A DNA stretch of 64,000 bases from a virus (IMGVR_UViG_3300021399_000122:32001-96000); one strand, 5' to 3'. Counted from the first letter of the stretch, positions 207 to 36,237 are shown. Translations and numbers: made by a program. The notes: generated from the sequence alone by a model not told the origin.

Positions 207-1255
207 TTTACGATATTGATGGAGTCAAGATTAATCATGCATATGATCTTGATGGAACAGATTTAGCCGAAGCATTCGATATTGATGGTAATTCAATATT
301 CAGAAGGGGCAAAGCCACAGGCTATTCAATCGAAAATGTTCAGTCCTACTATCAGCCGAGAACGTTAGAGGTAACCGAACAGATAAATGCACTAAGCGAT
401 GATTGGCAATCATTTATATTTGTCACCGATCCGCATTATCCATCAAATGAAATGCATTCACAGTCAATTGCGCTATATCTGTTAAGCAACTCATCTGCAT
501 CAATGATTGTTCTTGGAGGCGATTATTGTGAAGGCTCATACAACTCTTCACGGTATAAAACATGGACTGCTGAATTTAGGGAAAGCGAAAATAAACACTA
601 TATTCATGCACTGTTTGGGAATCACGAACGCTTTGGCGGAGATCAATCAATGCCAACAGCGTTGAACGATATTTATAGTGATTTTCTTTCTGATAAAGTT
701 GATGATTTGGTTGGCAATCTTGAACAAGACTACTATTATTTTGACGATTCAGTCCGCAAAATAAGATACATGTTTATAAATACATCAGATGGAACGGATG
801 CATCGACAACGGCAGAGAACGCAACTACCATTTCCGCAACACAGCTTGCTTGGGTTAGAGAGGTTGTGCAGTTGCCAGATTCAACATGGTCGCTTATCGT
901 ATTGGCACATGTCAACATGATGTACGGAACTGGTTTGTTAAAAAATAAAGCGGATTTGATAGCCGTCATCGAAACCTGCAATGGCTCCATCGTTGGCTAT
1001 ATCTGCGGTCATCAGCACGCTGATAAAATATCGAAAATATCAGATGGCTTTTATGAATTAACACTTTTGTGTGATAGATTTTCTGAAACATATCCCGAAT
1101 CAGAAACAGAGGGAGGACATAGAGAGGCGGGAACGTATACCGAGCAGGCGGTTTCCGTTGTTTCATTTAATACGATAACCAAACAGGTAGTCATGAGAAG
1201 AATCGGTGCAGGTAACGATCAAGTGTTAAGTTATTCGTATGCGGTTGAAAGTTAA
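203..1255 (+). CDS. Calcineurin-like metallophosphoesterase
   Basis: Motifs TDPH, GGDY, GNHE, AH and GHQH in the correct order; N-terminal (Y/F)D(I/L)DG repeats. Confidence 0.85.
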   Translation: MIYDIDGVKINHAYDLDGTDLAEAFDIDGNSIFRRGKATGYSIENVQSYYQPRTLEVTEQINALSDDWQSFIFVTDPHYPSNEMHSQSIALYLLSNSSASMIVLGGDYCEGSYNSSRYKTWTAEFRESENKHYIHALFGNHERFGGDQSMPTALNDIYSDFLSDKVDDLVGNLEQDYYYFDDSVRKIRYMFINTSDGTDASTTAENATTISATQLAWVREVVQLPDSTWSLIVLAHVNMMYGTGLLKNKADLIAVIETCNGSIVGYICGHQHADKISKISDGFYELTLLCDRFSETYPESETEGGHREAGTYTEQAVSVVSFNTITKQVVMRRIGAGNDQVLSYSYAVES

Positions 1256-1271
1256 AGGAAACATTAAATCA
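1253..1271 (+). repeat. Gene-boundary element TAAAGGAAACATTAAATCA
   Basis: Starts at the stop codon of 203..1255; differs at one base from the copy at 3086-3104. Confidence 0.7.
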
Positions 1272-1288
1272 AAGACAGGAGGTGACAT

Positions 1289-2482
1289 ATGTCAGATATT
1301 GAACAAATCACAAGAGAGGAAGTCCTTCTGAACTCCATTGCAGAAGGAACTGGCTCAGAAATTAAACCGATCACACGGAAAGAAATGTACCTCTCGGCTA
1401 TCGCAGGAGAAACCGAACTCCCTGCCGATATGAAGCCGATCACTAGAGAAGAAATCTTTCTTCAGAAAGTACTGGATAACGGAACTGGTGGAGGCGGTGG
1501 CATCACACCGACAGGAACGATTGATATTACGTCGAATGGCGACCATGATGTAACCGATTATGCTACTGCTCACGTCGCTGTTCCTCAGCCGAGTGGAAGT
1601 GTGAACATTACTCAGAACGGAACACACGATGTTACTGATTTCGCTTCAGCAGAGGTGAGCGTCCCTAATTCCTATACATCCTCAGATGAAGGCAAGGTAG
1701 TTTCAAGCGGAGCATTAGTCAGCCAGTCAAGTCAGACAGTTACCGAAAACGGAACATATGACACAACATTGAAGAATGAGGTTGTTGTTAATGTAAGCGG
1801 AAGCGGTGGCGGCTCAGATGTTCTCAAAGCGATTGTTGAGAGAACTGCTGCTGACATAACATTGCCGAACGGTTTGACAAAAATAGGAAATTACGTATTC
1901 TACGGTTATGCAATTTTACGATCTATAGTATTGCCAAGCAGTTTAACAAGCATTGGACAATATGCATTCAACAATTGCACAGGCTTAACATCTATAACAT
2001 TGCCGAACGGTTTAACAAAAATTGAAACAAGTACATTCCGAGACTGCATAAGCTTGGCATCTATAACAATACCAAGTGGAGTTACAAGCATTGGAACATA
2101 TGCATTCAACAATTGTTCAGGCTTAACATCTATAACATTGCCGAACGGTTTAACAAGTATTGGAAACGACGCATTCAGCAATTGCTCGAGCTTGGCATCT
2201 ATAATAATACCAAGTGGAGTTACAAGCATTGGACAATATACATTCAACGGTTGTAGGAACTTAACGACTTTGGTATTACGCAGAAGTGATGCTGTTTGCG
2301 CTCTTAGTAATAAAAACGCATTAATAAGTACCCCTATTAGAGGTTATAACGGCTTAACAGGCAAAGTTTATGTTCCTTCTGCTTTGATAGAAAGCTATAA
2401 GACGGCTACCAACTGGTCAACAATTTACAATGAAGGACATATGGAATTTGTTGCGATTGAAGGAAGTGAATACGATGATTAA
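1289..2482 (+). CDS. BspA/TpLRR-type leucine-rich repeat protein
   Basis: 23-aa repeats LTSITLPNGLTSIGxxAFxNCxx; N-terminal PITRxE and NGxHDVT repeats; SD AGGAGG. Confidence 0.9.
   Translation: MSDIEQITREEVLLNSIAEGTGSEIKPITRKEMYLSAIAGETELPADMKPITREEIFLQKVLDNGTGGGGGITPTGTIDITSNGDHDVTDYATAHVAVPQPSGSVNITQNGTHDVTDFASAEVSVPNSYTSSDEGKVVSSGALVSQSSQTVTENGTYDTTLKNEVVVNVSGSGGGSDVLKAIVERTAADITLPNGLTKIGNYVFYGYAILRSIVLPSSLTSIGQYAFNNCTGLTSITLPNGLTKIETSTFRDCISLASITIPSGVTSIGTYAFNNCSGLTSITLPNGLTSIGNDAFSNCSSLASIIIPSGVTSIGQYTFNGCRNLTTLVLRRSDAVCALSNKNALISTPIRGYNGLTGKVYVPSALIESYKTATNWSTIYNEGHMEFVAIEGSEYDD
1856..2260 (+). repeat. Near-identical 138-bp-period DNA repeats inside the LRR gene
   Basis: ATAACATTGCCGAACGGTTT at 1856, 1994 and 2132; AGCTTGGCATCTATAA..ATACCAAGTGGAGTTACAAGCATTGGA at 2051 and 2189. 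Confidence 0.9.
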
Positions 2483-2696
2483 AACAGAAAACTTAACGAT
2501 TGGCGGTAAGACCTTCATCCGTACATATTCTGATGCAGGCATGAAAATCCATGGTGGCAGTCCTGCTTCTGATTACGATGAAGCAGTTGATCCTGCTGAA
2601 CTCGGAAGAACCTACACAGAGACAAATATTCCGATCGAAACAGATGCAACCGAAGCAGAGGAAATTCTTTCCATCCTCACAGGAGAATCTGTATGA
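2475..2696 (+). CDS. Hypothetical protein (RTYSD...YDEAVD...RTYTET type)
   Basis: ATG at 2475 overlaps the end of the LRR gene; stop overlaps the next ATG. Confidence 0.75.
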   Translation: MIKTENLTIGGKTFIRTYSDAGMKIHGGSPASDYDEAVDPAELGRTYTETNIPIETDATEAEEILSILTGESV

Positions 2697-3088
2697 TTAC
2701 GATTGAGAAAGCAAGACAGCTTAGAAAGCTGATTGAAAAGGCATCTGCATCACTGGACGATGAACAGGCATTAAACGGTGTTGAACTGTTCCCTAAGTGG
2801 AGCGAATCAGCGAGCTATGCAGTTGGCGACAGAGTTCAGTACGAAGGCACACTGTATAAGTGCTTACAGGCTCATGATGCACAGGCTGATTGGAAGCCTT
2901 CTGAAGCCGTGTCTTTATGGGTTAGGGTTGACGATCCTTCCATTGAATACCCTGCTTGGATTCAGCCTGTAGGAGCACAGGATGCATATCCGAAGGGAGC
3001 AAAGGTCAGCCACCTTGAAAAGCACTGGATCAGCGATGTTGATGGTAACGTGTGGGAGCCGTCAGTTTACGGGTGGTCTGAAGTTTAA
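2693..3088 (+). CDS. Carbohydrate-binding module (CBM5/12, ChiC-like) protein
   Basis: W..SASYAVGDRVQYEGTLYKCLQAH...W.P...LW plus a second AYPKGAKVSH...W.S...NVWEP module. Confidence 0.8.
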   Translation: MITIEKARQLRKLIEKASASLDDEQALNGVELFPKWSESASYAVGDRVQYEGTLYKCLQAHDAQADWKPSEAVSLWVRVDDPSIEYPAWIQPVGAQDAYPKGAKVSHLEKHWISDVDGNVWEPSVYGWSEV

Positions 3089-3104
3089 AGGAAACTTTAA
3101 ATCA
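3086..3104 (+). repeat. Gene-boundary element TAAAGGAAACTTTAAATCA
   Basis: Starts at the stop codon of 2693..3088; perfect inverted repeat TTTAAAG-GAAA-CTTTAAA at 3084-3101. Confidence 0.75.
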
Positions 3105-3119
3105 GAGAATTACAGGGAC

Positions 3120-3380
3120 GCTTCGCCTAGTCAAAGCCGTGATCCGTGGCTGAAGTAACGGATGGAGCGAAGCAAAGGCAGACTGTTGGGAGAAGGCTTG
3201 GTCTGCTATAATTAGCATTGTGTTGCAACTGATGTTAGATACGGCTTTCGGTCACGATTACTAACAGAGAAAGACAAAGGGCGTCTTTGAGACGTCAATG
3301 ACCGAATTTAAAATCTGAGGCCGGATGTGCGCACATCTGGGGCAACCTGCCGCCTGAAGATGCATAGTGCAGTCCTCAGA
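3120..3380 (+). ncRNA. Candidate structured non-coding RNA, family unknown
   Basis: No long ORF; at least 8 complementary segment pairs and one pseudoknot-type pairing (see findings). Confidence 0.55.
3204..3212 (+). promoter_or_regulatory. Possible extended -10 promoter (TGCTATAAT)
   Basis: Exact TGnTATAAT in an intergenic region; no convincing -35. Confidence 0.35.
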
Positions 3381-3409
3381 AACTTTAAATCACCAACCCA
3401 AAAGACTTT

Positions 3410-3432
3410 GGCCATCATATGATGGCCTTTTT
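3410..3432 (+). terminator. Rho-independent terminator
   Basis: GGCCATC-ATAT-GATGGCC followed by T5. Confidence 0.7.
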
Positions 3433-3511
3433 AATTGTAAACAAATTTGTAGAGCGAGCTTAATCAGCCCGCCCTTTTATTTATTTCTTAAATTTATGAA
3501 AGGAAGTAATT

Positions 3512-4000
3512 ATGGCAAATTTTAACAACCCCTATGTACCCGTACCCGGATGGCCGCAGTCTTCTGCGCTCGCCTACCCCGCTTCGGGTCAGCCCTACCA
3601 GCAGATGTCTTACACGCAGCCGTATCAGGCGCAGTACGCATCGCCTCAGATGTCACAGGCAAATTATGCCTACGCAAACTCTGTTAACAACAAGAATATT
3701 ATCTGGGTCGCCGGTCAGGCTGGCGCTGAAGCGTATCAGATGGAACCGGGCTCGCGGGCTGTTTTGCTCGACTCTAAAGATCAAGTTTTCTACATCAAAG
3801 TGGTTGGCCCGGACGGACGGCCCGAACCACTTATGGCATTTAAGTATGAACCTTTGAACCTGAACATGCAGAATGAGAGTTCACAGGCTTCGCAGGCAGT
3901 TGACACAAGCAACTTCGCCACGAAGGATGATCTGAACCAGATCATGGAATATGTCAAGAAGCTTTCTCAGGGACAGAAAGGATCTAAGACTAATGGCTAA
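3512..4000 (+). CDS. Hypothetical protein, gene 1 of conserved 5-gene phage module
   Basis: Q/P/Y-rich N-terminus then IIWVAGQAGAEAY...VLLDS...FYIK. Confidence 0.8.
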   Translation: MANFNNPYVPVPGWPQSSALAYPASGQPYQQMSYTQPYQAQYASPQMSQANYAYANSVNNKNIIWVAGQAGAEAYQMEPGSRAVLLDSKDQVFYIKVVGPDGRPEPLMAFKYEPLNLNMQNESSQASQAVDTSNFATKDDLNQIMEYVKKLSQGQKGSKTNG

Positions 4001-4223
4001 TCCTCTTTTCGATAAGTTAGGGGGATTGTCATACCCTCAAGTTAACTCGCATCTCGGCGCCTACAACGATTTACTTAATCGCGCCCAACAGATGGCACAA
4101 ACCTTACCTCCTACATTTAATCCACAATCAATTATTCAAAACATGTTAAACTCCCATCAGGTTTCGCAGGATCAGCTCAATCAAGCTATGAGCATTGCGA
4201 ATAAACTGACGGGCAGAGGGTAA
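3993..4223 (+). CDS. Hypothetical Q/N-rich protein (module gene 2)
   Basis: MANPLF...NPQSIIQNMLNS...SQDQLNQA; start overlaps the upstream stop. Confidence 0.75.
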   Translation: MANPLFDKLGGLSYPQVNSHLGAYNDLLNRAQQMAQTLPPTFNPQSIIQNMLNSHQVSQDQLNQAMSIANKLTGRG

Positions 4224-4270
4224 AAAAGAATTCTATTAAATTAACATAGAAGGAGGAAATTCTTTTTATT

Positions 4271-5050
4271 ATGTCTTTATCATATGACAATGCAAATGGC
4301 ATGGTTATGCCTGTTTCACCGATGCCTTATGGCGGTAACGGCGGTTTTGGTTTCGGCGGCGACGGAGCTTGGTGGCTCATCGTCCTGCTCCTCATCGGTT
4401 GGGGCGGCAACGGATTCGGTAACGGATTCGGCGGCGGAAGCGGTCAGGCTGAAGTCCAGCGTGGCTTCGATCAGTCTGCTGTTATGAACGGTATCTCAGG
4501 CGTAACATCTGCAATCACAAATCTTGGAACAGCGATGAATGCTGGTTTTGCTAACGCAGAGACAGCTGACAACGCTCGTCAGATTGCGAATATGCAGCAG
4601 GCCTTTGCGGCCCAGACAGCCATGACAAGTGGAATGAACACACTTGCCTCTCAGATTTCTAACTGCTGCTGCCAGTCACAGCTTCAGACAGCAAATCTGA
4701 ACTCGACAATTCTCGCAGAGAATTGTGCCGATCGTGCGGCACTTTCTGACGCACTCCGTGATGTTATCACAAGTCAGAACGCAGGCGTCCAGAGAATTCT
4801 CGACACTATGTGCCAGGATAAGATCGATGCTAAGAACGAGAAGATCGCAGACCTCCAGAACCAGCTGGCCATGGCTCAGCTCGCGGCTTCTCAGAACGCA
4901 CAGACAGCTTCTATCATTGCAAACAACGAAGCACAGACAGGTATTCTGGAACGTTATCTCGCTCCGTCACCCGTCCCCGCTTACATCGTTCAGAATCCTA
5001 ACGGATGCGGTAACTATTTCAACGGATACGGTTGCGGATGTAACGCCTAA
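4271..5050 (+). CDS. Gly-rich, single-TM, coiled-coil protein with Cys clusters (module gene 3)
   Basis: GGDGAWWLIVLLLIGWGG, NCCC, coiled coil, C-terminal GCGC; SD AGGAGG. Confidence 0.85.
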   Translation: MSLSYDNANGMVMPVSPMPYGGNGGFGFGGDGAWWLIVLLLIGWGGNGFGNGFGGGSGQAEVQRGFDQSAVMNGISGVTSAITNLGTAMNAGFANAETADNARQIANMQQAFAAQTAMTSGMNTLASQISNCCCQSQLQTANLNSTILAENCADRAALSDALRDVITSQNAGVQRILDTMCQDKIDAKNEKIADLQNQLAMAQLAASQNAQTASIIANNEAQTGILERYLAPSPVPAYIVQNPNGCGNYFNGYGCGCNA

Positions 5051-5064
5051 CAGGAGGTGGCATA

Positions 5065-5532
5065 ATGGCTGAATACAGTGCAAATGCCGTCCAGACTGTT
5101 AACCCCGGTGAGGTTGTTGTCTTCACCGCCTCAGATGCTCCTTGCATGAGGAACTTCGTGAGGCACAGAGACGGCACAGGCAGTTTCCTTCTCAGCGGTT
5201 GGCTCCCGCCCTTCATGCACGGTTGCCCTTGCAACTCAAGAACAGCCGAGTATCTTGTAGACTTTGGAGCCAATATCGCTGTGCCTACCGGTGGAACAGC
5301 CGGAGAAATCTCCGTAGCCATCAGCGTTGATGGGACAACTATTCCCGCCAGCACAATGAGAGTCACCCCTGCCGCCGTTGAAGAATACTTCAATGTCAGC
5401 AGATCAATCTCCGTGCCGGTGTGGCGTGGCTGTTGTGAAACAGTCGCAATTCGCAACACAAGTGATCAGCCGATCCTTGTTGAGTCTGCCAACATCAGAT
5501 TCACAAGACCTGATCTGAGCGTTACTTATTGA
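5065..5532 (+). CDS. Beta-rich protein, possibly BclA-C-terminal-like (module gene 4)
   Basis: AVQTV.PG..VVF...Y.VDFGANIAVP...ISVDG pattern; SD AGGAGG. Fold assignment is inference. Confidence 0.75.
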   Translation: MAEYSANAVQTVNPGEVVVFTASDAPCMRNFVRHRDGTGSFLLSGWLPPFMHGCPCNSRTAEYLVDFGANIAVPTGGTAGEISVAISVDGTTIPASTMRVTPAAVEEYFNVSRSISVPVWRGCCETVAIRNTSDQPILVESANIRFTRPDLSVTY

Positions 5533-5542
5533 GGAGGAACTT

Positions 5543-5914
5543 ATGGAACTGGAAAAGGTTTTAGAGAATCTTGAAGATTCGGTGAGTTCCGAGCTCGAGA
5601 AACTTGCCAAGAAAGGCGAACTTAACCCGGCAGAGATTAAGAACGCCACCGATGCATTATGCTTACTCGCTAAGATTAAGATGGTCGAAGACGGTGACTA
5701 TTCCGATGAAGAATACTCTGAGACTGACCATGCTTACAGAGGAAGCTATGCAAGAGGCAGAAGTTACCGGAGCCGTAGATATTCAAATGGTTCTAGTAGA
5801 CATAGCATCAATGACCGCATCGTTGATCAGCTTGAAAGAATGATGGACAGTGCAGGCAGTGAGTACGAGCGCAACGTGCTCTCTGGCTGGATCGCAAAAG
5901 TAGAAGCCGAATAA
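5543..5914 (+). CDS. Hypothetical protein with R/S/Y-rich segment (module gene 5)
   Basis: SD GAGGAGG; acidic N-terminus and RGSYARGRSYRSRRYS tract. Confidence 0.8.
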   Translation: MELEKVLENLEDSVSSELEKLAKKGELNPAEIKNATDALCLLAKIKMVEDGDYSDEEYSETDHAYRGSYARGRSYRSRRYSNGSSRHSINDRIVDQLERMMDSAGSEYERNVLSGWIAKVEAE

Positions 5915-5984
5915 TCGGCTGCTTGTCATTGCACCGGATTAACAGCTTGTAGGGTGCTGTTATCCGTTATTAGTTAGCTTGAGG

Positions 5985-6012
5985 AAGAGGGCTCTTTGTA
6001 GGGAGCCCTCTT
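5985..6012 (+). terminator. Hairpin, probable terminator after the 5-gene module
   Basis: AAGAGGGCTC / GAGCCCTCTT perfect 10-bp stem; weak U tail. Confidence 0.5.
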
Positions 6013-6035
6013 ATAATCCTACACGAGACAAAGAT

Positions 6036-6536
6036 ATGGCAAAATCTAAAGCAAGGACTAAGACTATTAAACTCGTCATCGACAACAAAGTCTTGGACAG
6101 GTATGCAGAATATTATTTCACGGAACACCCCAAGGCAAGACTATACCCGATAAAACATCCCTTTCATGAAAGCATTAATACGTGGATGGTGATGCGTCGG
6201 CCGATGATGAATGGTTTAAAACAGAAATGGAAGGACTTTATTAAATGGTTTGTCGATGATCAAGGTTGTTCCAACCTGCGCATCAGCAGATGCGAGATTT
6301 CACAGACGATTTATTACGACACAAATCGTAGGCACGATCTCGACAACGGCGTCCCGAAATTTATTTTAGACGGATTGGTCGAGAGCGGAATGATCGTTGA
6401 TGACGATTCAAAACATATAACAAAGTTAACACTTCAGTGCGCGACTGATACTGAACGCCCGAGAACAGAGCTCAGGATCAAGATCGCTGAATATGAGAGT
6501 ACGGCAGAGGATGATTCCCCTGCCCTTTTTATTTAA
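6036..6536 (+). CDS. rusA: RusA-like Holliday junction resolvase
   Basis: RRHDLDNGVPKFILDGLVESGMIVDDD matches the RusA D-x-D-N...K...D...DD catalytic pattern. Confidence 0.75.
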   Translation: MAKSKARTKTIKLVIDNKVLDRYAEYYFTEHPKARLYPIKHPFHESINTWMVMRRPMMNGLKQKWKDFIKWFVDDQGCSNLRISRCEISQTIYYDTNRRHDLDNGVPKFILDGLVESGMIVDDDSKHITKLTLQCATDTERPRTELRIKIAEYESTAEDDSPALFI

Positions 6537-6557
6537 CAAGGATAAAAGGAGAAGACT

Positions 6558-7142
6558 ATGGTAGCTATTAGCAAAGATATTATCTACAAAGACGCAACTA
6601 TTACAGATACATGGAACGGTGTTGAAATTGAAATCAAGCGTTCCCTCACTGCTGAACAGGCCGCGGCTTTTATCAGGTTTGTTTTTGGTAGCTCTATTAC
6701 CGATGACGGCAACTACCTCCCCGAGGTAGAACACACACTCGCAAGGATTGCGACAATTGCCGCATATACAAATATCGAACTGCCGGAGGATGCAAACGAG
6801 CAGTATGACCTGGTTTATGGAACAGACATCTGCGATTGGATCACCGACAGAATCAATTACGACCAGTTTGCAGCCATTGAAGATGGCATCAGAGAACGTC
6901 GCCTCGCATTCAACCGCGACAAGTCAAATGTTGTCGAGAGACAGATGAACGATATGTATGCATCGCTGAGCTCGCTCGTATCAACACTCGAATCAACGGT
7001 TGGTGAGGTCAGCGGCGAACAGCTGGAAGACTTCCTGAAGCTGCTTTCAAATACGAATATCGATGAGAAGAAAGTTGTCTCAGCAGTGTTCGATGAGAAG
7101 GCAAAGCGCAAACAGGTTAAACCTGCGAAAGAATCAGAATAA
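6558..7142 (+). CDS. Hypothetical protein, possible tail assembly chaperone
   Basis: Good SD; position upstream of the tape measure gene; paralogous to the next gene. Confidence 0.6.
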   Translation: MVAISKDIIYKDATITDTWNGVEIEIKRSLTAEQAAAFIRFVFGSSITDDGNYLPEVEHTLARIATIAAYTNIELPEDANEQYDLVYGTDICDWITDRINYDQFAAIEDGIRERRLAFNRDKSNVVERQMNDMYASLSSLVSTLESTVGEVSGEQLEDFLKLLSNTNIDEKKVVSAVFDEKAKRKQVKPAKESE

Positions 7143-7185
7143 TTGAATTAAGGAAGGAGGAGGTGCCGATCGGCACCATTTAATT

Positions 7186-11300: not shown

Positions 11301-14300
11301 CTACTACCGGTCTCACCTCTATCATCAAAGGTTATAACATGCACGTCGAGGACGCCGAACACGTCTCCGACGTTTTAGTTAGCATCGGTCAGAAGTACGC
11401 GGTCTCTGCTGGTGAAATGATGGAGGCCTACGAAAAGGCTGGTGCGGCATTAGCGGCAACCAACACATCATTTGATAAATCGGCGGCGTTAATTGCTGCG
11501 GCAAACGCTGCAGTGCAAAACTCGTCTATTGTAGGAACTGCCCTGAAAACAATTTCTGCAAGAATCAGAGGTTCTAAAACAGACCTCGAGGAGCTTGGTG
11601 AAAGTACAGAAGACCTCGCCGACGGTTTCTCTAAATACGCAAAAGAAATTAAGGCATTAACCAATGTCGACATCATGGTTGAAGGAACAACCAATCAGTT
11701 CAAAGACCTGTACGACATCATGGATGAAATCGCCGAGGTATGGGACGACCTCACCGATACACAACAAGCAAGAACCGCCGAGATCCTTGGTGGCACAAGG
11801 CAGTTGCAGGTTATTGCATCTATCATCAACAACTGGAAAGACGCGCAAGGCGCTTATGTGGACGCGCAGAATTCGGCTGGCGAAGCCGCCCGCGCAAACT
11901 CCATTTATATGGATACTGCAACGGCACACATGAACCAGTTCAAGGCCGCCTTCCAAGAATTAGCACACACAATTATTGATAGTGATTTCCTTAAGCAGGT
12001 TATTGACATTGGAACGGCGATGCTTAAAGCGGCAGACGCCGTTACAAGGTTCATTGAGTCGGCTGGAGGATTGGCGCCTCTTTTAATCAATATTTCCGGG
12101 TTGCTCCTTGTCCTAAGAGGAAATGACATCATCAAATTGCTCAGCAAGGCTGGCACTGCTATGGCAAGCCTTATTAGTACCGTTGGTACTTGGCTAGGGA
12201 CGTTAACAACGGCTGGCGCAGGTGTTATTACGACACTGGATATGGTCGAAGTAAGCGCAACATCCGCAGCGGCTGCAACTGCGCCACTGACAGGAATCAT
12301 TGGTGCGGTAATGGTTGCTGCATCTGCACTTGCCGCAATGGTTATCAGAACAAAGAACAGCATTGCACAAGCTCGTGAAGAGACTATTAGAGCTGGTGAG
12401 GCAGCGGCCACCGAAAGTGCTGAGCTTGTAAACCTTACACAAGCGTATGAAGAACTTGTTAAAGTTGGTTCTGACAGCGCCGCAATTATTGAAGCTAGAG
12501 ACAAGGTACTTGATAAACTGCATGTTGAGTATGACGAGCTCCAGCGGCTGATTGCCGAGTACGGATCATATGAAGAGGCAATTAAACACGCAGCAGCGTC
12601 ACAGGTAGCAGCACAGCGTGCTACATTGCAAGGCGCGTATAACAACGCGGCAAAGAATCTTACGTCGAGCGGATATGAGAGTGCTGGGGCAGCGCACAGA
12701 ATTGATTATGGCGACAACCCAGCTGCAGATAGACGTGCGATCAAAGCTTTGTCTGGCGCAGGATATATAAGCGGCTCTTCCAACGGATTCGGAGGGAGCG
12801 TCGTTAACTATAACCTTGGGGATCTTTCTACAACCGAAGGCATCATCGAAGCGTATGGCAGACTGCACGACATGATGAATATGTTGATCGATGATGGCCA
12901 TGCAAATACAGCCGTATATCAGGATCTTTATAATCTGTATACACAACTCCAAGTCGGTGTAGATTCTTACAATAGCGCACTGAACAACTTAATCGCAAAC
13001 GAGCTGCAGCAACAATACCTTGAGCAAGGTGTTCCTCAGACTGCCGCCGAGTATTCCAACCTCCGTAATCAATTGATCTCAACAGTAATGGCATCGGATC
13101 AATTCTCTGGGTCTATGGCCGAGGCCGGTGCAGTTGTTGACGACTTCCTTGGCAAACAATACGGGCTCGAAGAATTCTCTAACGGCATTCAAGGTGCATT
13201 TAGTAATATCACAAGCGGAGCCGACGCAATCAATGCAGTGCATGATGCGTTTAAGGGTGTCAAGGATACAATCGATGGAGTCACGAGCTCATTGCAGGCG
13301 GTCAGCTCGGTACAAGATCTTGTAGCCAATGGCTTTGTAGTCGATGCTCAGAAAGCTATGGAACTTGCGGCCGCCTACCCCGAAATTCTTGATAACGCAA
13401 CTGTTACCGCAGAAGGTCAGCTTCAATTAAATGAAGCGGCGGTAAACTCGTTTATTGAAGGCAAAGAGAGCGAGATCAACGCGTCAATTGACGCAAAGAT
13501 TGCCGACCTTCGAGCAGACGAAGCTGTGTTGGAGGCGAAGAAGGAATTCGCAACAGGTCAATTACAGATGGCTCAAGCGGTTGCCGAGGGCGAAGATGCT
13601 ATTACGGTATCGCAGTTAAAGAATAGACTTGAAAATTCAAATAAAGTTGTCAACGCCCTTATCCAGATGGGGTACGATGAGGCAACAGCTTATCAGATGG
13701 CGTTGGAGGCAATGTCTGAAAACGTTAGTATCTTCGACGGTAACGTAGGTGATGCGGCGCAAAATATTGCTGACAACTTCGCATCTGCCTCTGAAAGTAG
13801 CGCCAACTCTCTGAACACCAACACGATCCTCATGAATTCCAACATTAACAAGATTACCTCTCACGCCCACGAAGCGGCTAAGGCCGTGAATGGAATCGGA
13901 AGTGGTAATGTTGCTGGTAACGTTTATGATGATGGTGGAGCCGGATCTGCGCATGTCAAAAACTTTAACAAAGCCACAAATAAAAGGGCGCTTGTCAATG
14001 CTGCAGTCAGAGAGAGCAACCGCAACAATGTCGACCTTCAAAATCTGATTTCTAACATTAAAGCGGATATCAGCGGGTACACCGCAGCGATCGGCGCCAT
14101 CCACGGCCAGATTAGTGCGTTAGAGGGGTTGCGCAACTCTGCAATAAGCGGTATTCGAAATTATAAGCCGAGCTCATCTGGCGGCTCCGGAGGTTCCGGT
14201 GGCGGTGGTGGAGGTGGCGGTGGCGGAGGCGGAGGTTCTGGCTCTGGCTCTTCTGAGAAAGAAGAGACTTGGTTCCAGAAACAATACAAACTCCACCAAC

Positions 14301-27859: not shown

Positions 27860-27862
27860 CTT

Positions 27863-28658: not shown

Positions 28659-28674
28659 ATTGGAGGAAATGAAC

Positions 28675-29511: not shown

Positions 29512-29525
29512 GGCGGTGACGCTCT

Positions 29526-30773
29526 ATGGCAAATAAGTATTTAGATCCTAATAGCTTATCATATTTTTTAAATAAAATAAAAACATTTTTAGCCAACCAA
29601 GCCGTTGTGCATAAAACCAAATCCATCCCATTCGGTCAAGTTGATAGTACATCCACAGCCACCGTTTTTACAGCAACGGTTGATGGCATAACCGAATTGG
29701 CGGATGGTGTATGTGTGATGCTTAAGAATGGTGTGATAACCTCGGCATCTGGATGCACTCTTAATGTAAATAATTTAGGTGCAAAACCTATTTATCACAC
29801 GAATGGAGAAGAAAGTAGAGTTGGCACGTCTTTCAATGTAGCATACACGTGGTTATTTGTTTATAACAGCACTCGTGTTGATGGTGGATGTTGGGACGCA
29901 TATTGGGGATATAATTCTGATTCGAATGATACAACAACTGGATATGTACGAATTGCTTACGGTCAGTTTAAACCAACAACAAATTTATACCGTTATCAGG
30001 TATGTTTGACAAAAAACGAAGAAGAAATAATACCTGTTACTGAAGTATCAAATAACACTGGTACCGCAAAAGCACTGACAACAGAGTCATTTAACCCGTT
30101 CGCTCCAGTTTATTATTACTCTTCAACAGCAACCGTTACTGCTGGAACGCTTATAACTGCCTCTTATATTTGGTCGGCATACGCGAGAGTAAATATAAGG
30201 TATTCGTTTAATACTGGCGCCACTTTGACGGCAAATAAAGACGTTTATATTCGAGCAACATTAACAAATGGTATTGAGGCGAAACTTGCGGCCGATCCAA
30301 TTACACAGGAATTACCATCAAGCGATGATGGCTATATTTACATTAAACTTGGTCATTCATGTGACAATTATAGAGTTTCGTTGACATATGATCACCCAAT
30401 ATATATTTATAAAAACGGAGCAATTAGAACATTGTCCGGATATAGCGAGTATGCACAATATGTTAATGGGCACACCGTTAGCTCGGACGTTCCGGCGAAT
30501 GCCGTGTTCACAGATACAGTAACAACGGTCGCAGCAACAGGCACAGGTAATGCAGTCACAGACTTGTCCGCAACAAACGGAGCCATCACAGCAACATATG
30601 GTGCAACTTTCCTCACAGAACATCAGGATATTTCTGGGAAAATGGATATTCCTGCCGGCGGTAGTGCTGGACAGGTGTTGACTAAAACAGCAAATGGATA
30701 CGAATGGGAAGATCCAATTTTGCTTGATGCTTACGTTGCAGGTGAAGTGATCACATTTACAGATAATAGGTAG
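29526..30773 (+). CDS. Fibre-like structural protein
   Basis: TLNVNNLGAKPI, VPANAVFTDT, LTEHQDISGK, GQVLTKT motifs. Confidence 0.7.
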   Translation: MANKYLDPNSLSYFLNKIKTFLANQAVVHKTKSIPFGQVDSTSTATVFTATVDGITELADGVCVMLKNGVITSASGCTLNVNNLGAKPIYHTNGEESRVGTSFNVAYTWLFVYNSTRVDGGCWDAYWGYNSDSNDTTTGYVRIAYGQFKPTTNLYRYQVCLTKNEEEIIPVTEVSNNTGTAKALTTESFNPFAPVYYYSSTATVTAGTLITASYIWSAYARVNIRYSFNTGATLTANKDVYIRATLTNGIEAKLAADPITQELPSSDDGYIYIKLGHSCDNYRVSLTYDHPIYIYKNGAIRTLSGYSEYAQYVNGHTVSSDVPANAVFTDTVTTVAATGTGNAVTDLSATNGAITATYGATFLTEHQDISGKMDIPAGGSAGQVLTKTANGYEWEDPILLDAYVAGEVITFTDNR

Positions 30774-30817
30774 ACACAGTTTAACTGTGGAAATCAGAAC
30801 CGTCCACCCTACTGGGC

Positions 30818-30841
30818 GACCGTGATAGTCGGTCTTTTTTT
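30818..30841 (+). terminator. Rho-independent terminator
   Basis: GACCG-7nt-CGGTC followed by T7. Confidence 0.6.
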
Positions 30842-30909
30842 ATGGCAATACATATCGCTTGGCCAAGGTTAGCCGGCCATGCGGTAAACAGCTGAATATT
30901 TATACAAAC

Positions 30910-30936
30910 GGGAGCCACGCAAAGGCTCCCTTTTTT
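30910..30936 (+). terminator. Rho-independent terminator directly before the endolysin SD
   Basis: GGGAGCC-ACGCAAA-GGCTCCC followed by T6. Confidence 0.7.
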
Positions 30937-30954
30937 AATGGAAGGAGAACTATT

Positions 30955-31722
30955 ATGGCTAAATCATATGCCGCTTTTAAGAAGTCTCACCTTGGCCTGA
31001 AGATTGATCTTGATGGATTCCCCGTACAGCAGAAATTCCAGTGCTGGGATTTGGCAAACAAGTATTTTCTCTACATCGGCGGCCACAAGATTCATTGTGG
31101 CCAGACTGGTTATGTCAAGGACATTGCGAATCAGCGTTCCACAAATGGCATCCTGGATTTCTGCGTCGATATCGGCCTTAAGGCTGAGATGCAGCCGGGC
31201 GATATTGTAGTGTGGACAAACCGTTCACCTCACTGCCCGTATTCCCATATCGCCATTTATGACCATGACAACGGTCAGGAAGAAATCTATTTCTTAGGGC
31301 AGAATCAACCTTATCCGTATGTAACAGTCGCACGTATTCCTTGGCAGGGAATCATTGGTGTGTTCCGTCCGAAGATTTTCATGGATCAGACGCCGACACC
31401 GGCACCGGCAAAGCGTCCCGATCAGATCCTCACTGTTGGTTCAAAGGTCAAGAGCTGGGGCTTCTATATCGAGAAGATCGATTACATCCGCCAGTGGGGA
31501 TACAATAGCTGGGTTGGTGGTTGGTTCCCGCTGAAGGACGTTGACGAAGTTGACGCATTGGACGGCAAAAAGGATCAGATCGTGCATGTCGGATCCGGCT
31601 GCGCGTTCCCGAAGACCTACACCGTTACCGCCGTTGACGTCAAGAATGACCGTGCTTTCTTAAAAGAGCTTGGCTATTGGGTCAAGTGCCGCTGTCTTAA
31701 CGAGGTAGAAGAAGGCAACTAA
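30955..31722 (+). CDS. Endolysin (CHAP domain plus SH3-like C-terminus)
   Basis: QCWDL...QPGDIVVW...SHIAI...LGQNQ; Pro/Thr linker; SD AAGGAG. Confidence 0.85.
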   Translation: MAKSYAAFKKSHLGLKIDLDGFPVQQKFQCWDLANKYFLYIGGHKIHCGQTGYVKDIANQRSTNGILDFCVDIGLKAEMQPGDIVVWTNRSPHCPYSHIAIYDHDNGQEEIYFLGQNQPYPYVTVARIPWQGIIGVFRPKIFMDQTPTPAPAKRPDQILTVGSKVKSWGFYIEKIDYIRQWGYNSWVGGWFPLKDVDEVDALDGKKDQIVHVGSGCAFPKTYTVTAVDVKNDRAFLKELGYWVKCRCLNEVEEGN

Positions 31723-31821
31723 GGAAAATGGGGAGATTATTCTCCCCTTTCGTTAAAAGCAAGTTAATCCAAGATCTTTCGTACTACATTTTACGCGGTT
31801 GAATCGGACAGGAGGTTAAAC

Positions 31822-32061
31822 ATGATCGATTGGAAACGAAAGCTGTCCAGCCGTAAATTATGGCTGGCAATCGCCGGATTTGTATCCGGTCTGATGGTAT
31901 TCTTTGGCCGCACAGAATCAGAAGCTACTCAGGTCAGCGCTCTGATTATGTCTGCTGCATCCGTTATCTCTTATATTGTTTCGGAGGGACTCATCGACTC
32001 GGCGAATGCGGGGTTTGTATATCCTGAGGAGCCGACAGATGCCGACCGGAACGGAGATTGA
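31822..32061 (+). CDS. Holin
   Basis: WKRKLSSRKLWLA, two TM segments, YIVSEGLID. Confidence 0.8.
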   Translation: MIDWKRKLSSRKLWLAIAGFVSGLMVFFGRTESEATQVSALIMSAASVISYIVSEGLIDSANAGFVYPEEPTDADRNGD

Positions 32062-32419
32062 AATTGTCTGGTCGTTTCTTGGTAAGATCGCTGCGATTCT
32101 TGGTGTAATCGTTGCGGCTATCAAAGCGATCCAGTACTTGAACTCACTCACCCCTGCGGCGAAGTTAGAGCTTCGTGTTGCCGAGAATGAACGCAAGCTC
32201 AACAACGACTTCGAGCACCTCAAGGCGATCGACGAAAAGATTGCTCATCTGGAAAAGAAAACAGATGACACTCAGCTCCAGATCAAGGAAGTCAATGAAG
32301 GCATCCAGCGAATAGGCAAGTCTCAAATCTCTTTACTCCGTCATTTTGTCACCGGAAACGGCCAGAAAGAAATGTCGGAAGAGGCGGACGATTTAACTGC
32401 GTGGTTCATTGACAGATAA
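32039..32419 (+). CDS. Lysis-associated membrane protein (N-terminal TM plus coiled coil)
   Basis: SD GAGGAG 7 nt before ATG 32039; one TM then coiled coil; follows the holin. Confidence 0.7.
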   Translation: MPTGTEIEIVWSFLGKIAAILGVIVAAIKAIQYLNSLTPAAKLELRVAENERKLNNDFEHLKAIDEKIAHLEKKTDDTQLQIKEVNEGIQRIGKSQISLLRHFVTGNGQKEMSEEADDLTAWFIDR

Positions 32420-32442
32420 AAATTGAATAAAACTGCTCTTTT

Positions 32443-32480
32443 GTTGCGTATACAGCTGCTGCGTATACGCAACTTTTATT
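32443..32480 (+). terminator. Terminator of the lysis module
   Basis: GTTGCGTATAC / GTATACGCAAC 11-bp stem plus TTTTATT. Confidence 0.7.
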
Positions 32481-32553
32481 CCCGTGTAGCCTAACGGCAA
32501 GGCAAGCGACTTTGACTCGCTCGATGTGGGTTCGATTCCCGCCACGGGTGCCA
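32480..32553 (+). tRNA. tRNA-Gln (TTG)
   Basis: Cloverleaf: CCCGTG/CACGGG acceptor, GCC/GGC D arm, AGCGA-CTTTGAC-TCGCT anticodon arm, GTGGG-TTCGATT-CCCGC T arm, encoded CCA. Confidence 0.92.
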
Positions 32554-32557
32554 TAAA

Positions 32558-32668
32558 GGCCGGTGATCAAGCATTAAAAGATTGTAAGACAATAGCTGCC
32601 CAGTAAGCGGAACACGACATGTGCAACTCCGCGTGGGATTCGCGTGATTGAAACTGCACGCACGGCCA
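32558..32668 (+). ncRNA. Candidate small structured RNA downstream of tRNA-Gln
   Basis: GGCCG/CGGCC closing stem, GTGCA/TGCAC inner stem, followed by a strong terminator. Confidence 0.4.
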
Positions 32669-32669
32669 C

Positions 32670-32710
32670 AGACCCAAGCTCTCGCAGGTAGAGGCTTGGG
32701 TCTTTTTTTT
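32670..32710 (+). terminator. Rho-independent terminator
   Basis: AGACCCAAGC / GCTTGGGTCT stem plus T run. Confidence 0.8.
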
Positions 32711-32727
32711 GTTTAGGAGGAAAAGGA

Positions 32728-34143
32728 ATGAATGTACTTGTCGCATGCGAAGAATCCCAGAGAGTGTGCGTTGAATTTAGAAATTTGGGGCATCGAGCAT
32801 TTAGCGCTGACGTTCAGGAGTGTAGTGGAGGCCATCCTGAATGGCATATACTTGGAGATGTTTTGCCAATCCTTGATGGCAACTGCACATTCGTTACTCA
32901 AGACGGTGCCGAACATGAAATCTCTGGTGAGTGGGATCTCATTATCGCCCATCCTCCCTGCACATATCTGACTATTACCGGCAACAGGTGGTTCGATGCT
33001 GATGTGTACGGCGACGAGGCAATCGAACGCGCAAATAAGCGTGACGAAGCAGAAGAGTTCTTCATGAAGTTTGTCAATGCGAAGTGCAAGAGAATCGCTA
33101 TTGAGAATCCGATTGGCTTCATGAGTACACGATATCGTATGCCGGATCAAATCATCCAGCCATATGAGTTTGGAGATCCGGTGCTTAAGAAAACATGCCT
33201 TTGGCTGAAGAATCTTCCCAACTTAAAGCCAACTGATAATCTCCATCTGAAGTATGATGGTGACTTTAGTAAGAACCATGGCGACCTGTACTGTGCAAAA
33301 GATGAGAACGGAAAAATCCTTGCATGGAATGATCCGATGACGGCAAAGCTGCGTAGCAAGACGTTTATTGGGATTGCCAAAGCCATGGCAGAACAGTGGA
33401 GTTCCAGCCTCCCGCCACTCATCGACCCGTCTGAAATCACAAACGATAATTCTATGAATGTATTGGTTGCGTGTGAAGAATCGCAGGCGGTATGTATTGC
33501 CTTCAGACGTAAAGGCCACCGTGCATTCAGCTGCGATTTACGGACAAACAGTGGCGGGTACCCGGAGTGGCATATTAAAGGTGATGTCTTGCCATATTTG
33601 AATGGAAATTGCTCGTTCGAAACTGAGGATGGCGTTACCCATCATCAGGTTGGCAAATGGGATTTAATTATCGGGCATCCGCCTTGCACATATTTGACAA
33701 AGGGTGGCGCCGTTAGGCTCTTTCGAAAAGAAAAAAAGTATTATCCATCGTACGGTACATTCCAAATGGTTAATGTCGAGCGGCTCAAACAAGGAATTGT
33801 TAGTCGCGATTTTTTTATGCGGATTTTAAATGCGGATTGCGACAAAATCGTCGTTGAAAATCCCGTCCCAATGGGAATATACATGCTCCCTGAGCCAACG
33901 CAGATCATTGAGCCATATCAGTTTGGCGATCCATACAAAAAGCAAACATGTTTGTGGATCAAAGGATTGGAAAAGCTGCATCCCACAAATATCGTGGAGC
34001 CTACTATGTGTTGGGCAAGTGGAGGCTCCAAGAATGCAGACGGGACAAAGCGCAAGAGCAAGGCTTTGACAAGCCGAGTTGCTCAAGTAAGAAGTAAAAC
34101 CTTTTCTGGCATAGCGAGTGCTATGGCTGATCAATGGGGATAA
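32728..34143 (+). CDS. Tandem-duplicated DNA cytosine methyltransferase-like protein
   Basis: Two copies of VLVACEESQ...WDLII.HPPCTYL...(I/V)ENP...K.TCLW...RSKTF.GIA.AMA.QW; PC and ENP are C5-MTase motifs IV and VI. Confidence 0.75.
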   Translation: MNVLVACEESQRVCVEFRNLGHRAFSADVQECSGGHPEWHILGDVLPILDGNCTFVTQDGAEHEISGEWDLIIAHPPCTYLTITGNRWFDADVYGDEAIERANKRDEAEEFFMKFVNAKCKRIAIENPIGFMSTRYRMPDQIIQPYEFGDPVLKKTCLWLKNLPNLKPTDNLHLKYDGDFSKNHGDLYCAKDENGKILAWNDPMTAKLRSKTFIGIAKAMAEQWSSSLPPLIDPSEITNDNSMNVLVACEESQAVCIAFRRKGHRAFSCDLRTNSGGYPEWHIKGDVLPYLNGNCSFETEDGVTHHQVGKWDLIIGHPPCTYLTKGGAVRLFRKEKKYYPSYGTFQMVNVERLKQGIVSRDFFMRILNADCDKIVVENPVPMGIYMLPEPTQIIEPYQFGDPYKKQTCLWIKGLEKLHPTNIVEPTMCWASGGSKNADGTKRKSKALTSRVAQVRSKTFSGIASAMADQWG

Positions 34144-34148
34144 TAATA

Positions 34149-34187
34149 AAGGCAGATTGACTTTGATTGTCAGTCTGCCTTCTTTTT
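34149..34187. terminator. Bidirectional terminator where the two gene arms converge
   Basis: AAGGCAGATTGAC / GTCAGTCTGCCTT stem with T-rich tails on both strands. Confidence 0.75.
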
Positions 34188-34437
34188 ACCAGATGCTCCA
34201 CCAAAACTCAGAGCACTTCTTGTATCCACCATAGTTGGGAATCTCATCCATGCGGCGAAGCTTCCTATTACAGATCTGTTTGAACTCTCTGCTACGTCTC
34301 CCTCTGTAGACTCTATGCAGTCTTTCGTCTGTCCAGTGGTGGCATACGCCAGAGCAGATCCATCGCCTGTGGCTGAATACATCGCTATAAAGCTTGGCCA
34401 GCCTTCTTTTGTCTTCTTGCTTGCGCTGGTAACCCAC
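34186..34437 (-). CDS. Basic hypothetical protein
   Basis: SD GGAGGTGA upstream; K...NRKLRR...YKK..EFWW. Confidence 0.65.
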   Translation of the reverse strand: MGYQRKQEDKRRLAKLYSDVFSHRRWICSGVCHHWTDERLHRVYRGRRSREFKQICNRKLRRMDEIPNYGGYKKCSEFWWSIW

Positions 34438-34514
34438 AGTATCACCTCCCGTTAGAAGATGATCACCCCCTTTACTTGAAATAGTATTTTTATCGACCGC
34501 GATACTTTGTAGAT

Positions 34515-34895
34515 TTAGAGCCCCGAAGTTATGACGTGCACCTCGGCGTTGGAACGTTTGGCAATGTTTATCATGTTTGCTGTGCCTCTGCTCTTTCCAT
34601 CCCAGAAGGCGACGACTATTGCCTCCGCTCCGAGCGCATAATTCAACATCTGTCTGTTGCGGATCGGCCCTGCTGACTTTCCGTATTCATCCCAATAGGC
34701 CTCGAATACTGTCACACGAAGCCCCCTTGATTTTGCGTAGTCTTCAGCGATCCTATCTGCGCCACGGCACCCACCGGATATAATCTCCACATTTACAGGA
34801 TCTCCTAGAATGTTATCAAGAGTTGAATATAACAGCTCCCTATCATTAAAAGTCCTCGTCCCGCAGACAATTACTCTTCTTAAAATGGCAATCAC
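34515..34895 (-). CDS. SLOG family (DUF2493/YspA-like) protein
   Basis: VIVCGTRTF...ISGGCRGAD...SAGPIRNRQM...AFWDGKSRGTANM. Confidence 0.85.
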   Translation of the reverse strand: MIAILRRVIVCGTRTFNDRELLYSTLDNILGDPVNVEIISGGCRGADRIAEDYAKSRGLRVTVFEAYWDEYGKSAGPIRNRQMLNYALGAEAIVVAFWDGKSRGTANMINIAKRSNAEVHVITSGL

Positions 34896-34922
34896 ACTAC
34901 TCCTCGCCTTATTGTTTCCATA

Positions 34923-35126
34923 CTATTTACCCTTCCAATCCACTATAACCTTCCACTTATCGCACGGCTCATCCAGTTCTTGATCGTATACTGGGTAGTC
35001 TTCCCAATCTATTTCAATGCCACGAATCTCGCAGTAACAACAATCGGCGTGATATTTGTCACAGCTGTAACATGCGTCAAGGAGATCGCTTTCACTATAT
35101 GCTTTCATAGCCTTAATATAGCACAT
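34923..35126 (-). CDS. Small Cys-rich hypothetical protein
   Basis: CxxC...C...C..W pattern. Confidence 0.55.
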   Translation of the reverse strand: MCYIKAMKAYSESDLLDACYSCDKYHADCCYCEIRGIEIDWEDYPVYDQELDEPCDKWKVIVDWKGK

Positions 35127-35157
35127 TTAACTTTCCGGTAACTTGCAAGACTGTGAT

Positions 35158-35430
35158 TTAAAGTTTCCTTTCTTTTGCTCTCAGTTCTGCTCTGCGCTTC
35201 TGATCTTGTTCGTATAACAACTTTTTATACGCATACGCTTCACCGAGTAACACGCCCAATTCAAATTCCTTTGATTCATGTCCATCACGATAATACTCCA
35301 GTATTGAAGCAACATAGTTGATGTCCGCTTCCAGTTTGTAGATATTACCGATCAGATAATCCTCTGTGAAACTGCGCTGTCTTTCTTTGCGCTCAGAATA
35401 GAGAAGGTTAACATGTTCTTGTTCTGTCAT
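35158..35430 (-). CDS. Hypothetical protein, runs element to element
   Basis: ATG overlaps one element and TAA overlaps the next. Confidence 0.7.
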   Translation of the reverse strand: MTEQEHVNLLYSERKERQRSFTEDYLIGNIYKLEADINYVASILEYYRDGHESKEFELGVLLGEAYAYKKLLYEQDQKRRAELRAKERKL

Positions 35431-35454
35431 AATGTTTCCTTTTACTCTCTTTCA

Positions 35455-35634
35455 TCACCACGGAATTGACACATCGTATTCTTCAGCGAGTGCGCGATAA
35501 TCTTTCTGAAGTAACATGATTCTGCCTAGAGGAGTCACCACATGTGCGCCAAACAGTTTAGCAATAATACACTTTATTTTCTGTCTGAAGGTTTCCGCAA
35601 TGTCATATCTTGCGATAAATTCATAATCGTCCAT
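35455..35634 (-). CDS. Small hypothetical protein (MDDYEFIARY...)
   Basis: Translated by hand, 59 aa; TAATG coupling to an upstream 22-aa TM mini-ORF. Confidence 0.5.
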   Translation of the reverse strand: MDDYEFIARYDIAETFRQKIKCIIAKLFGAHVVTPLGRIMLLQKDYRALAEEYDVSIPW

Positions 35635-35698
35635 TAACAGCTACTCCTGCCTAGTATAAATCCGAGTATAATTCCTGCTATTGTGCCAAGAATGCAAA

Positions 35699-36097
35699 TC
35701 ATTGGTTGTCTCCTTTAACGTGCTTTCCGTAACCGCTTTGGCTTTGCAACGTTGTTACGGTCACTTCCCCATCGTAGATTGACACAAGATATTCGCCGTC
35801 TTTGTTGAAAGCAACATTCGTTGTCGATCCGTTCTTCTTGACTTCAAACGGAAGCAATCCGTCATTCGTGACGCTGATTTTATCGCCAACCTTAATAATC
35901 TGCTCTTTTGTGTATATAAATTCTGCCATATCGTCACCTAAAGTTTCCTTTTGCTCGGCTTTTGCCAATTTGTTCAACTCTCTGCGATTTGATGAGTTGT
36001 AAAACATGATCCGTTTGCATTTCCAATTTTTGCTTTTCAGTGCGGTCTTGATAACGTAAGCATTTACTTGCTTTCGTTTTTTGTTTTCGCTTGTCAT
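35699..36097 (-). CDS. Hypothetical protein; probable in-frame join of two units (internal start 35929)
   Basis: An element at 35939-35952 is followed by SD AGGTGA and an in-frame ATG (MAEFIY...). Confidence 0.55.
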   Translation of the reverse strand: MTSENKKRKQVNAYVIKTALKSKNWKCKRIMFYNSSNRRELNKLAKAEQKETLGDDMAEFIYTKEQIIKVGDKISVTNDGLLPFEVKKNGSTTNVAFNKDGEYLVSIYDGEVTVTTLQSQSGYGKHVKGDNQ

Positions 36098-36108
36098 AAA
36101 CTTCCCTT

Positions 36109-36222
36109 TTAGTCATCCCCTCCGAACCAACCAAACACAAACCAGACCACTATCCAAACTGCTATTATAAAAAGGAAAGACTCAGCATAGAGAGAACATA
36201 TATTTTTCGCGAAATCAATCAT
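36109..36222 (-). CDS. 37-aa single-TM mini-protein
   Basis: MIDFAKNICSLYAESFLFIIAVWIVVWFVFGWFGGDD*; start and stop each overlap a boundary element. Confidence 0.6.
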   Translation of the reverse strand: MIDFAKNICSLYAESFLFIIAVWIVVWFVFGWFGGDD

Positions 36223-36237
36223 AAAGTTTCCTTTTGT

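Follow-up and report, generated by a model that had tools for sequence, protein, structure and literature searches.

A short motif at gene junctions and mosaic joints of rumen phages also forms the ends of chromosomal repeats in rumen Clostridiales

We analyzed 64,000 nucleotides (bases 32001–96000, hereafter the window) of the 104,848-bp viral record IMGVR_UViG_3300021399_000122, the 89% complete genome of a rumen phage in which a short motif recurs at gene boundaries of two accessory gene arrays. The motif is real and conserved and marks mosaic joints: modules are gained, lost, or replaced beside it in related phages, and its 15-mer also forms the ends of repeats in the chromosomes of rumen Clostridiales, a link between phage junctions and host repeats that is new here. 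Our preferred reading, which we hold tentatively and rate a little below an even chance, is that the motif is a portable junction of about 19 nt, which either derives from host repeat ends or has its sequence in common with them, and that it supplies a stop codon and a Shine-Dalgarno (SD) sequence and serves as a recombination joint.

An earlier note on the window had listed eight copies of the motif, and all eight are in the sequence as described, overlapping or abutting stop or start codons (Table 1). The 13-mer AAAGGAAACWTTA occurs exactly six times, at 1254 and 3087 on the plus strand and at 35159, 35430, 35939, and 36222 on the minus strand, and a search of the whole 104,848-bp genome found no further exact copy. 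With up to one mismatch allowed, 0.25 copies are expected and none of 100 shuffled sequences reaches 7, confirming that the motif is far commoner than in shuffled sequence; it is also restricted to junctions. A longer form, GAAACWTTAAATCA, is exact at 1258, 3091, and 3379 (plus strand) and at 35154–35167 (minus strand), and the variant at 36097–36110 was confirmed as AAAGGGAAGTTTA followed by TG. Both arrays share the terminal sequence GAAACTTTAAATCAC, as had been claimed. Elsewhere in the window, a near-copy with one mismatch lies within a ClpP-like gene at 47293, and GGGAAGTTTAAATCA at 39–53 falls in a coding frame. The consensus of the element, wider than first reported, covers about 19 nt, TAAAGGA(A/C)AC-NW-TAAATCA, and is frequently followed by (G/C)A(G/A)A.

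The copies fall into two classes. Left-only copies (35430, 36222, 36097, and probably 35939) consist of AAAGGAAAC, a short AU spacer, and a start codon. Those at 35430, 36097, and 36222, which have a purine-rich anti-SD match 5–10 nt before the start, are ordinary ribosome-binding sites (RBSs), and the copy at 35939, which marks an internal start or else the junction of two fused genes, is probably another. TAAATCA is carried by the extended copies (1253, 3086, and 35159) and by the right-part copy at 3379, all of which lack such an anti-SD match and are not explained by a start codon; the argument of the earlier note that an SD role alone leaves these four copies unexplained stands. About 35 nt downstream of the full copy at 35154..35171 is an extended −10 promoter-like site, TGTGCTATATT; relatives of the open reading frame (ORF) that runs into this copy were searched for, and no homologue was found.

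Comparison with related phages places the edges of several modules at the motif. The noncoding module X, which follows the carbohydrate-binding (CBM) gene in the window, is 94% identical to positions 11432–11736 of another phage contig (L022); the identity begins at the motif and stops at the right-part copy, and both the upstream gene and the downstream sequence are different. In L022 and L186 the right-part copy is degenerate (GATTTCTTTAGATCA and similar), yet its pairing is retained, and a hairpin of module X shows compensatory changes between the window and L022, read off the alignment (CCGG.../...CTGG versus TTGG.../...CCGA). The 3′ domain of the module also occurs in L186, inside a tandem series of short units split by motif copies; no Rfam family matched module X. 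The CBM gene itself is followed by the motif in L187, L194, and L199 and directly by a terminator in L188 and L189. A 48-nt unit between motif copies is found behind four different genes (L186, L187, L445, and L447), and one gene, which we call Z, follows the motif directly (L437), via a leader (L187 and L439), or via a tRNA plus leader (L440). In L186 and L444, but not in the window itself, the motif precedes homologues of genes 36416..36685 and 37238..37507 of the window. For module X, the 48-nt unit, gene Z, and others, indel or replacement breakpoints between related phages therefore lie at the motif. The apparent joints are at differing positions (after TTTA, before TTTAAATCA, or within GGAAAC), with no single crossover.

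The motif is widespread in viral contigs. An exact 18-mer search returned 45 stretches, of which those from rumen-type metagenomes have the motif right after a stop codon and in many unrelated contexts; a GGACAC variant is equally common in rumen-type viral contigs, and rumen metagenome contigs supplied more cases. Some loci were picked independently of the motif, as neighbors of the CBM gene; these have AAT or GAT in the middle (TTT or ATT in the window), and some close relatives are motif-free, with the terminator alone. The central bases thus vary among TT, AT, AA, and GA. Across the viral contigs and the window, exact GGAMACWTTAAATCA has 124 distinct contexts, 33 of them noncoding and 91 in long open frames, most of the latter being a conserved helicase gene of unrelated phages. 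A looser pattern, in which the first central base could be A, T, or G and the last base of the pattern A or G, was applied to a wider locus set and gave 131 contexts; 26 of them have a sense frame, 80 codons or longer, that ends no more than 30 nt upstream, its stop being the TAA of TAAAGG in 11 of these, and the antisense arrangement is essentially absent. A copy that lies within an open frame in one relative (G002) was set aside and is not used as evidence. Most related phage records have one copy, with a range of one to eight per genome.

What follows the motif differs from locus to locus. It may be a gene with its own SD (window 1289, L009, L044, L371, L437, L443, and L444), a tRNA or tRNA-type gene 2–8 nt downstream (L194, L440, L027, and L186), or a noncoding module, namely X, the 48-nt unit with its three ACTCGAAA repeats, or a conserved element in L010, L013, L038, and L442. 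In other cases it is an intrinsic terminator (window 3410, L011, L295, L304, and L323) or a sigma-70-type promoter (window 35159 and L194). Such varied downstream neighbors argue against a promoter; they suit a neutral adapter, or else a signal linked to the upstream gene end. Rfam gave no match at the relatives' loci, a search of the phage collection gave none either, nor did a metagenome search with the CBM gene end plus motif, and a literature search on the motif string found nothing relevant. A CRISPR repeat or host attB origin was rejected, as the matches in the genome-collection scan were isolated chance occurrences, mostly in coding sequence. An inversion model was also considered for an inverted partial copy, TGGCTCTTTAAATCA, in a conserved fiber gene about 2 kb upstream of the motif (L017, L027, L186, and L194); we judged these copies to be one homologous site within the chance expectation for a 3-mismatch search, and the model was rejected because the opposite strand is without coding sequence.

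The entry point to the host chromosomes was a genome-scan match in a rumen Clostridiales metagenome-assembled genome (locus L076, genome G011), after which the whole of G011 was searched. There, GGAMACTTTAAATCA with up to one mismatch has 26 copies and a control pattern 0; 14 of 41 relatives have copies, up to 30 in G035, with controls near 0. The 15-mer of the motif is the terminal inverted repeat of palindromic, noncoding, multicopy elements of 140–700 bp, with arms that are either arrays of 7-nt G-rich repeats or GC-rich hairpins. Arms of the first type hold three to five tandem 7-nt units (GATAGGA, GTGAGGA, GAGTTGA, ATTAGGG, and others), the 5′ arm being G-rich and the 3′ arm C-rich; repeats of the second type measure about 440 nt. 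Both types are bounded by GG(A/G)(C/A)(A/G)CTTTAAATCA in inverted orientation (L233–L247, L248–L274, and L405–L432, from G011, G035, and relatives), and neither had an Rfam match. An inverted partner lies at 140–700 bp in 13 of the 20 G035 loci, and since four of the seven partnerless loci abut a contig end, their partner may be cut off.

These host elements are dispersed singly in intergenic regions, not arrayed, and they are mobile repeats of the kind formed by miniature inverted-repeat transposable elements (MITEs). G011 contains nine near-identical 150-nt copies whose similarity stops at the repeat ends. For one G011 copy, C84, the orthologous intergenic region of G032 and G015 contains neither repeat nor motif, representing empty sites, and in G018 it contains a different member of the family. 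Bacteria have MITEs and other small dispersed palindromes related to them, such as the Correia elements, REPIN-type repeats, and bcr1. The host elements are likewise short, noncoding, multicopy, and intergenic, with terminal inverted repeats and presence or absence at orthologous sites; they differ in having no consistent target-site duplication, no cognate transposase that we could find, and arms of 7-nt G-rich repeats. The phage copies differ further, being solitary sense-oriented ends only, fused to stop codons.

How could one sequence serve in both settings? In the phage, where the motif is solitary, sense-oriented, and typically fused to the stop codon of the preceding gene, it would act as an adapter that supplies a stop codon and the SD-like AAAGGA, the latter presumably used as a real ribosome-binding site at 35430, 36222, and 36097. 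Because the motif is the only stretch common to otherwise unrelated junctions, we infer that modules are joined there, inserted just 3′ of it, or lost there. Exchange would most likely proceed via short-homology or illegitimate recombination, for which the ERF protein and the PD-(D/E)XK nuclease encoded by the phage are candidate machinery, or via whatever activity mobilizes the host repeats. The route is probably not an integron-type reaction of a tyrosine recombinase on a palindromic core.

Several observations weigh against a portable junction shared with host repeats. The array-2 block (approximately 34489–38560) is an indel relative to the closest relative, G001, and its edges carry no motif; G001, whose synteny to the window is inverted, has a single motif copy plus terminator at the end of a fiber-gene block located elsewhere in its genome. 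The expectation that breakpoints among relatives coincide with the motif is borne out in part: gain, loss, and replacement of modules recur at the motif, whereas no crossover position is shared and the array-2 indel edges are motif-free. On the host side, no transposase or autonomous element with these ends, and no IS-sized end pair, was found, and target-site duplications are inconsistent, with one of 6 bp (CTTTAT) and none at other copies. Complete inverted-repeat elements are almost absent from the phage contigs scanned (one case, L339), the window and its relatives having solitary sense copies, so the phage copies are not simple insertions of host repeats. Nor is the phage tied to the repeat-carrying clade: the best result of a portal search was a 40% match, with no close prophage, and the phage–host link is therefore environmental and taxonomic only. 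Finally, strict sense orientation is what would be expected of a functional RNA or transcription signal, and a purely DNA-level model needs selection to account for it.

This strict orientation keeps a serious rival in play, namely that the motif is a cis-acting, sense-strand expression signal and that mosaic joints coincide with it as the sole conserved stretch at gene boundaries; we regard this as possible but improbable. Such a signal could be an RNA processing site, cleaved inside ACUUUAAAUCA, at which long late transcripts would be divided into modules; an element after the stop codon that retains ribosomes or mediates coupling; or a promoter that responds to a sigma factor or activator. 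Its position fits, directly after stop codons and 2–8 nt upstream of tRNA-type genes, noncoding modules, and SD-ATG starts, as does the SD-like left half with its use as an RBS. The segment is also AU-rich and would be single-stranded, since the small hairpin UAAAG-GAAA-CUUUA, considered as a structure in its own right, is broken in the AAT and GAT variants. Several observations speak against a promoter: full copies stand directly before terminators (L011, L295, and L304, as does window 3379) or before sigma-70-type promoters (window 35159 and L194), where it would be pointless; sigma-70-like promoter prediction gave none at motif copies; sigma-70, sigma-54, sigma-H, and extracytoplasmic function (ECF) consensuses misfit in spacing; and no RNA polymerase or sigma factor was seen among the phage proteins scanned. 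Against an expression signal of any form, most phages have one copy, and in the host the motif flanks inserted palindromes as inverted pairs.

A site-specific recombination system dedicated to the insertion and excision of cassettes, in which the solitary phage copies would be double-stranded sites like attI and the host hairpin elements would resemble attC, is unlikely. It would account for the units between direct copies (1253, 3086, and 3379 in the window; tandem arrays in L186 and L187), for extra units immediately 3′ of the motif before one and the same gene, and for host elements whose conserved inverted ends enclose variable palindromic centers, as in attC; the phage also has four tyrosine-recombinase-like genes. 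The earlier note had read the motif in this way, as inverted arms around a 6-bp spacer, and the symmetry did not hold up: AAT and GAT occur centrally in relatives, so AAAG/CTTT pairing is not a conserved feature, and AAAGGAMAC and TAAATCA, the two halves that are conserved, lack dyad symmetry and do not form an inverse-complementary pair. Joints at different positions, one copy per genome as the rule, and host elements dispersed singly also speak against it, as do the three of eight window copies that are plain SD-plus-ATG sites and the place of the host motif at the ends of palindromic repeats. No recombinase gene adjoins either array, and the recombinase at 62458..63351, put forward as the enzyme, could not be linked to the sites, its only homologue being in G001 and none in G003 or G009, which are near-complete and bear the motif. 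A specific version, in which an undescribed system of rumen Clostridiales and their phages would recognize the 19-mer and exchange cassettes there, with host hairpins as folded donors and phage sense copies as acceptors that take genes, tRNA-type genes, and small RNAs at their 3′ edge, we consider quite unlikely.

That the motif is merely a family of similar ribosome-binding sites is highly improbable and already contradicted. In its favor, three copies are correctly spaced from an ATG, the array has many stop-plus-SD junctions of the TAAAGGAG type (those at 36418, 36710, and 37095 read TAAAGGAG or TAAAGGAA), and relatives have AAGGAAAC-N3–5-ATG starts and commonly RBSs of the AAGGAAAC type. 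However, no start codon is within reach of four copies in the window and of dozens in relatives, after which tRNA-type genes, noncoding modules, or terminators come next; in addition, TAAATCA is conserved as the right half, and the 15-mer is also a host repeat end.

Among described phage systems, the closest analogue is that of the promoter-early stem-loop cassettes (PeSLs) of T4-type phages, which combine a sigma-70 promoter with a terminator stem-loop and for which activity and mini-circles have been shown (PMC2839356, PMC4122927). PeSLs are likewise short, conserved, and intergenic and lie in hyperplastic regions composed of small accessory genes, with indels and replacements arising by recombination between them (PMC2839356, PMC4122927); the motif differs in being 19 nt long, without promoter consensus or conserved hairpin, and shared with bacterial chromosomal repeats. 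The stoperators of cluster A mycobacteriophages, which number at least 20 per genome and match the operator of the repressor, resemble the motif in placement only, being asymmetric sites of 13–14 bp that follow the direction of transcription in short intergenic regions and often lie at stop or start codons (PMC9283540, PMC6550527). By contrast, the motif has one to eight copies per genome and no operator counterpart that we saw, and it is also a chromosomal repeat end. Integron attC and attI sites similarly lie at gene 3′ ends, often over the stop codon, and the short ends of the host elements flank variable palindromic centers; the differences are that an integron integrase is missing, that the phage copies show no conserved pair of inverse core and core, that most genomes are without arrays, and that the host elements are dispersed.

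Table 1. Motif copies, adjacent modules, and candidate enzymes (window coordinates)
Feature	Position	Strand	Remarks
Full junction element TAAAGGAAACATTAAATCA	1253..1271	+	Its TAA (1253–1255) is the stop of ORF 203..1255
SD AGGAGGTGA of the LRR gene and ATG 1289	Downstream of the 1253..1271 element	+	The gene's own SD
Three-gene module	1289..3088	+	Between two full copies
BspA-like LRR protein	1289..2482	+	In three-gene module
73-aa ORF	2475..2696	+	In three-gene module
CBM5/12-like protein	2693..3088	+	In three-gene module
Full junction element TAAAGGAAACTTTAAATCA	3086..3104	+	Its TAA (3086–3088) is the stop of the CBM gene, ORF 2693..3088
Module X, noncoding, structured	3105..3378	+	Element 3087–3392 including bounding copies
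Right-part copy GAAACTTTAAATCA	3379..3392	+	3′ strand in the helix that closes module X
Intrinsic terminator	3410..3435	+	Ends the operon right after the motif-bounded modules
Full copy AAAGGAAACTTTAAATCA	35154..35171	-	ORF 35158..35430 runs in and terminates at the internal TAA
Left 13-mer into ATG 35430	35430..35442	-	Ordinary SD-plus-start of ORF 35158..35430
Left 13-mer	35939..35951	-	In frame inside ORF 35699..36097; then GGTGA and ATG 35929
Variant AAAGGGAAGTTTA into ATG 36097	36097..36110	-	SD-plus-start
Left 13-mer into ATG 36222	36222..36234	-	SD-plus-start for a 37-aa membrane peptide
Tn916-type integrase	38768..40030		Tyrosine-recombinase-like
PD-(D/E)XK nuclease and ERF single-strand annealing protein	55128..57103	-
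MrpR-like protein	57241..58239		Tyrosine-recombinase-like
Tyrosine recombinase proposed in the earlier note	62458..63351	-	Not linked to the motif in other phages
Fourth tyrosine-recombinase-like gene	Outside window

We made further observations on the modules and genes around the motif. Module X contains a sigma-70-like promoter (TTGAGA, 16 nt, TAAAAT; 10/12 matches; region 3287–3435, plus strand), which by eye is apparently retained in L022 (TTGAGG, 16 nt, TAAAAT). An RNA of about 110 nt that would run from this promoter through the conserved 3′ domain to the terminator at 3410–3435 makes this a candidate small RNA gene. By eye, the end of the CBM gene and module X have no similarity of the kind expected for the template and variable repeats of a diversity-generating retroelement, and a hammerhead-like core in the module misfits in register. 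A small membrane protein gene at 36940–37077 (minus strand; ...WYFEN) has homologues in L194 and L442 that end at the motif; the equivalent of that end in the window is TAAAAGGTCACAC, and the frame continues for 18 codons.

A tRNA-type gene of about 110 nt at 48690–48800 (minus strand) has an acceptor stem, a Leu-like D arm (GTGGCGGAATAGGTAGACGC), and a T arm with the loop TGCAAAT, and about 65 nt replace the anticodon arm; neither ARAGORN nor Rfam gave a call. Its homologues in L027, L022, and L186 have differing central inserts and usually lie directly after TTTAAATCA. A second repeated intergenic leader, with three AGACGAG boxes (AGACGAGATCGT ... CAGACGAGGTGA), is found at 4470–4585 and 5140–5215 of L187, at 600–690 of L010, and in L440, directly before the starts of several small genes of the fiber-lysis region. 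In G003 (L014/L026), a 40-kb circularly assembled relative, the motif is at position 2; the assembly may have broken at the motif because many co-occurring genomes share it. The phage also encodes a PemK/MazF-like endoribonuclease of 169 aa in the replication/recombination region (58266–58775, minus strand; Pfam E 3e-24) and, outside the window, a reverse transcriptase (RVT_1, E 5e-17) at genome positions 102240–103445 (L232 7240–8445, minus strand).

Phage genomes are mosaic, and the sequences at which their parts are joined can seldom be identified; here, one short sequence is found at many joints within a group of rumen phages. The motif is a testable handle on how these phages trade accessory genes, tRNA-type genes, and small RNAs, and a marker for joints in metagenomes. 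Were a dedicated enzyme to act on it, the motif would belong to a new gene-cassette system in phages of Bacillota.

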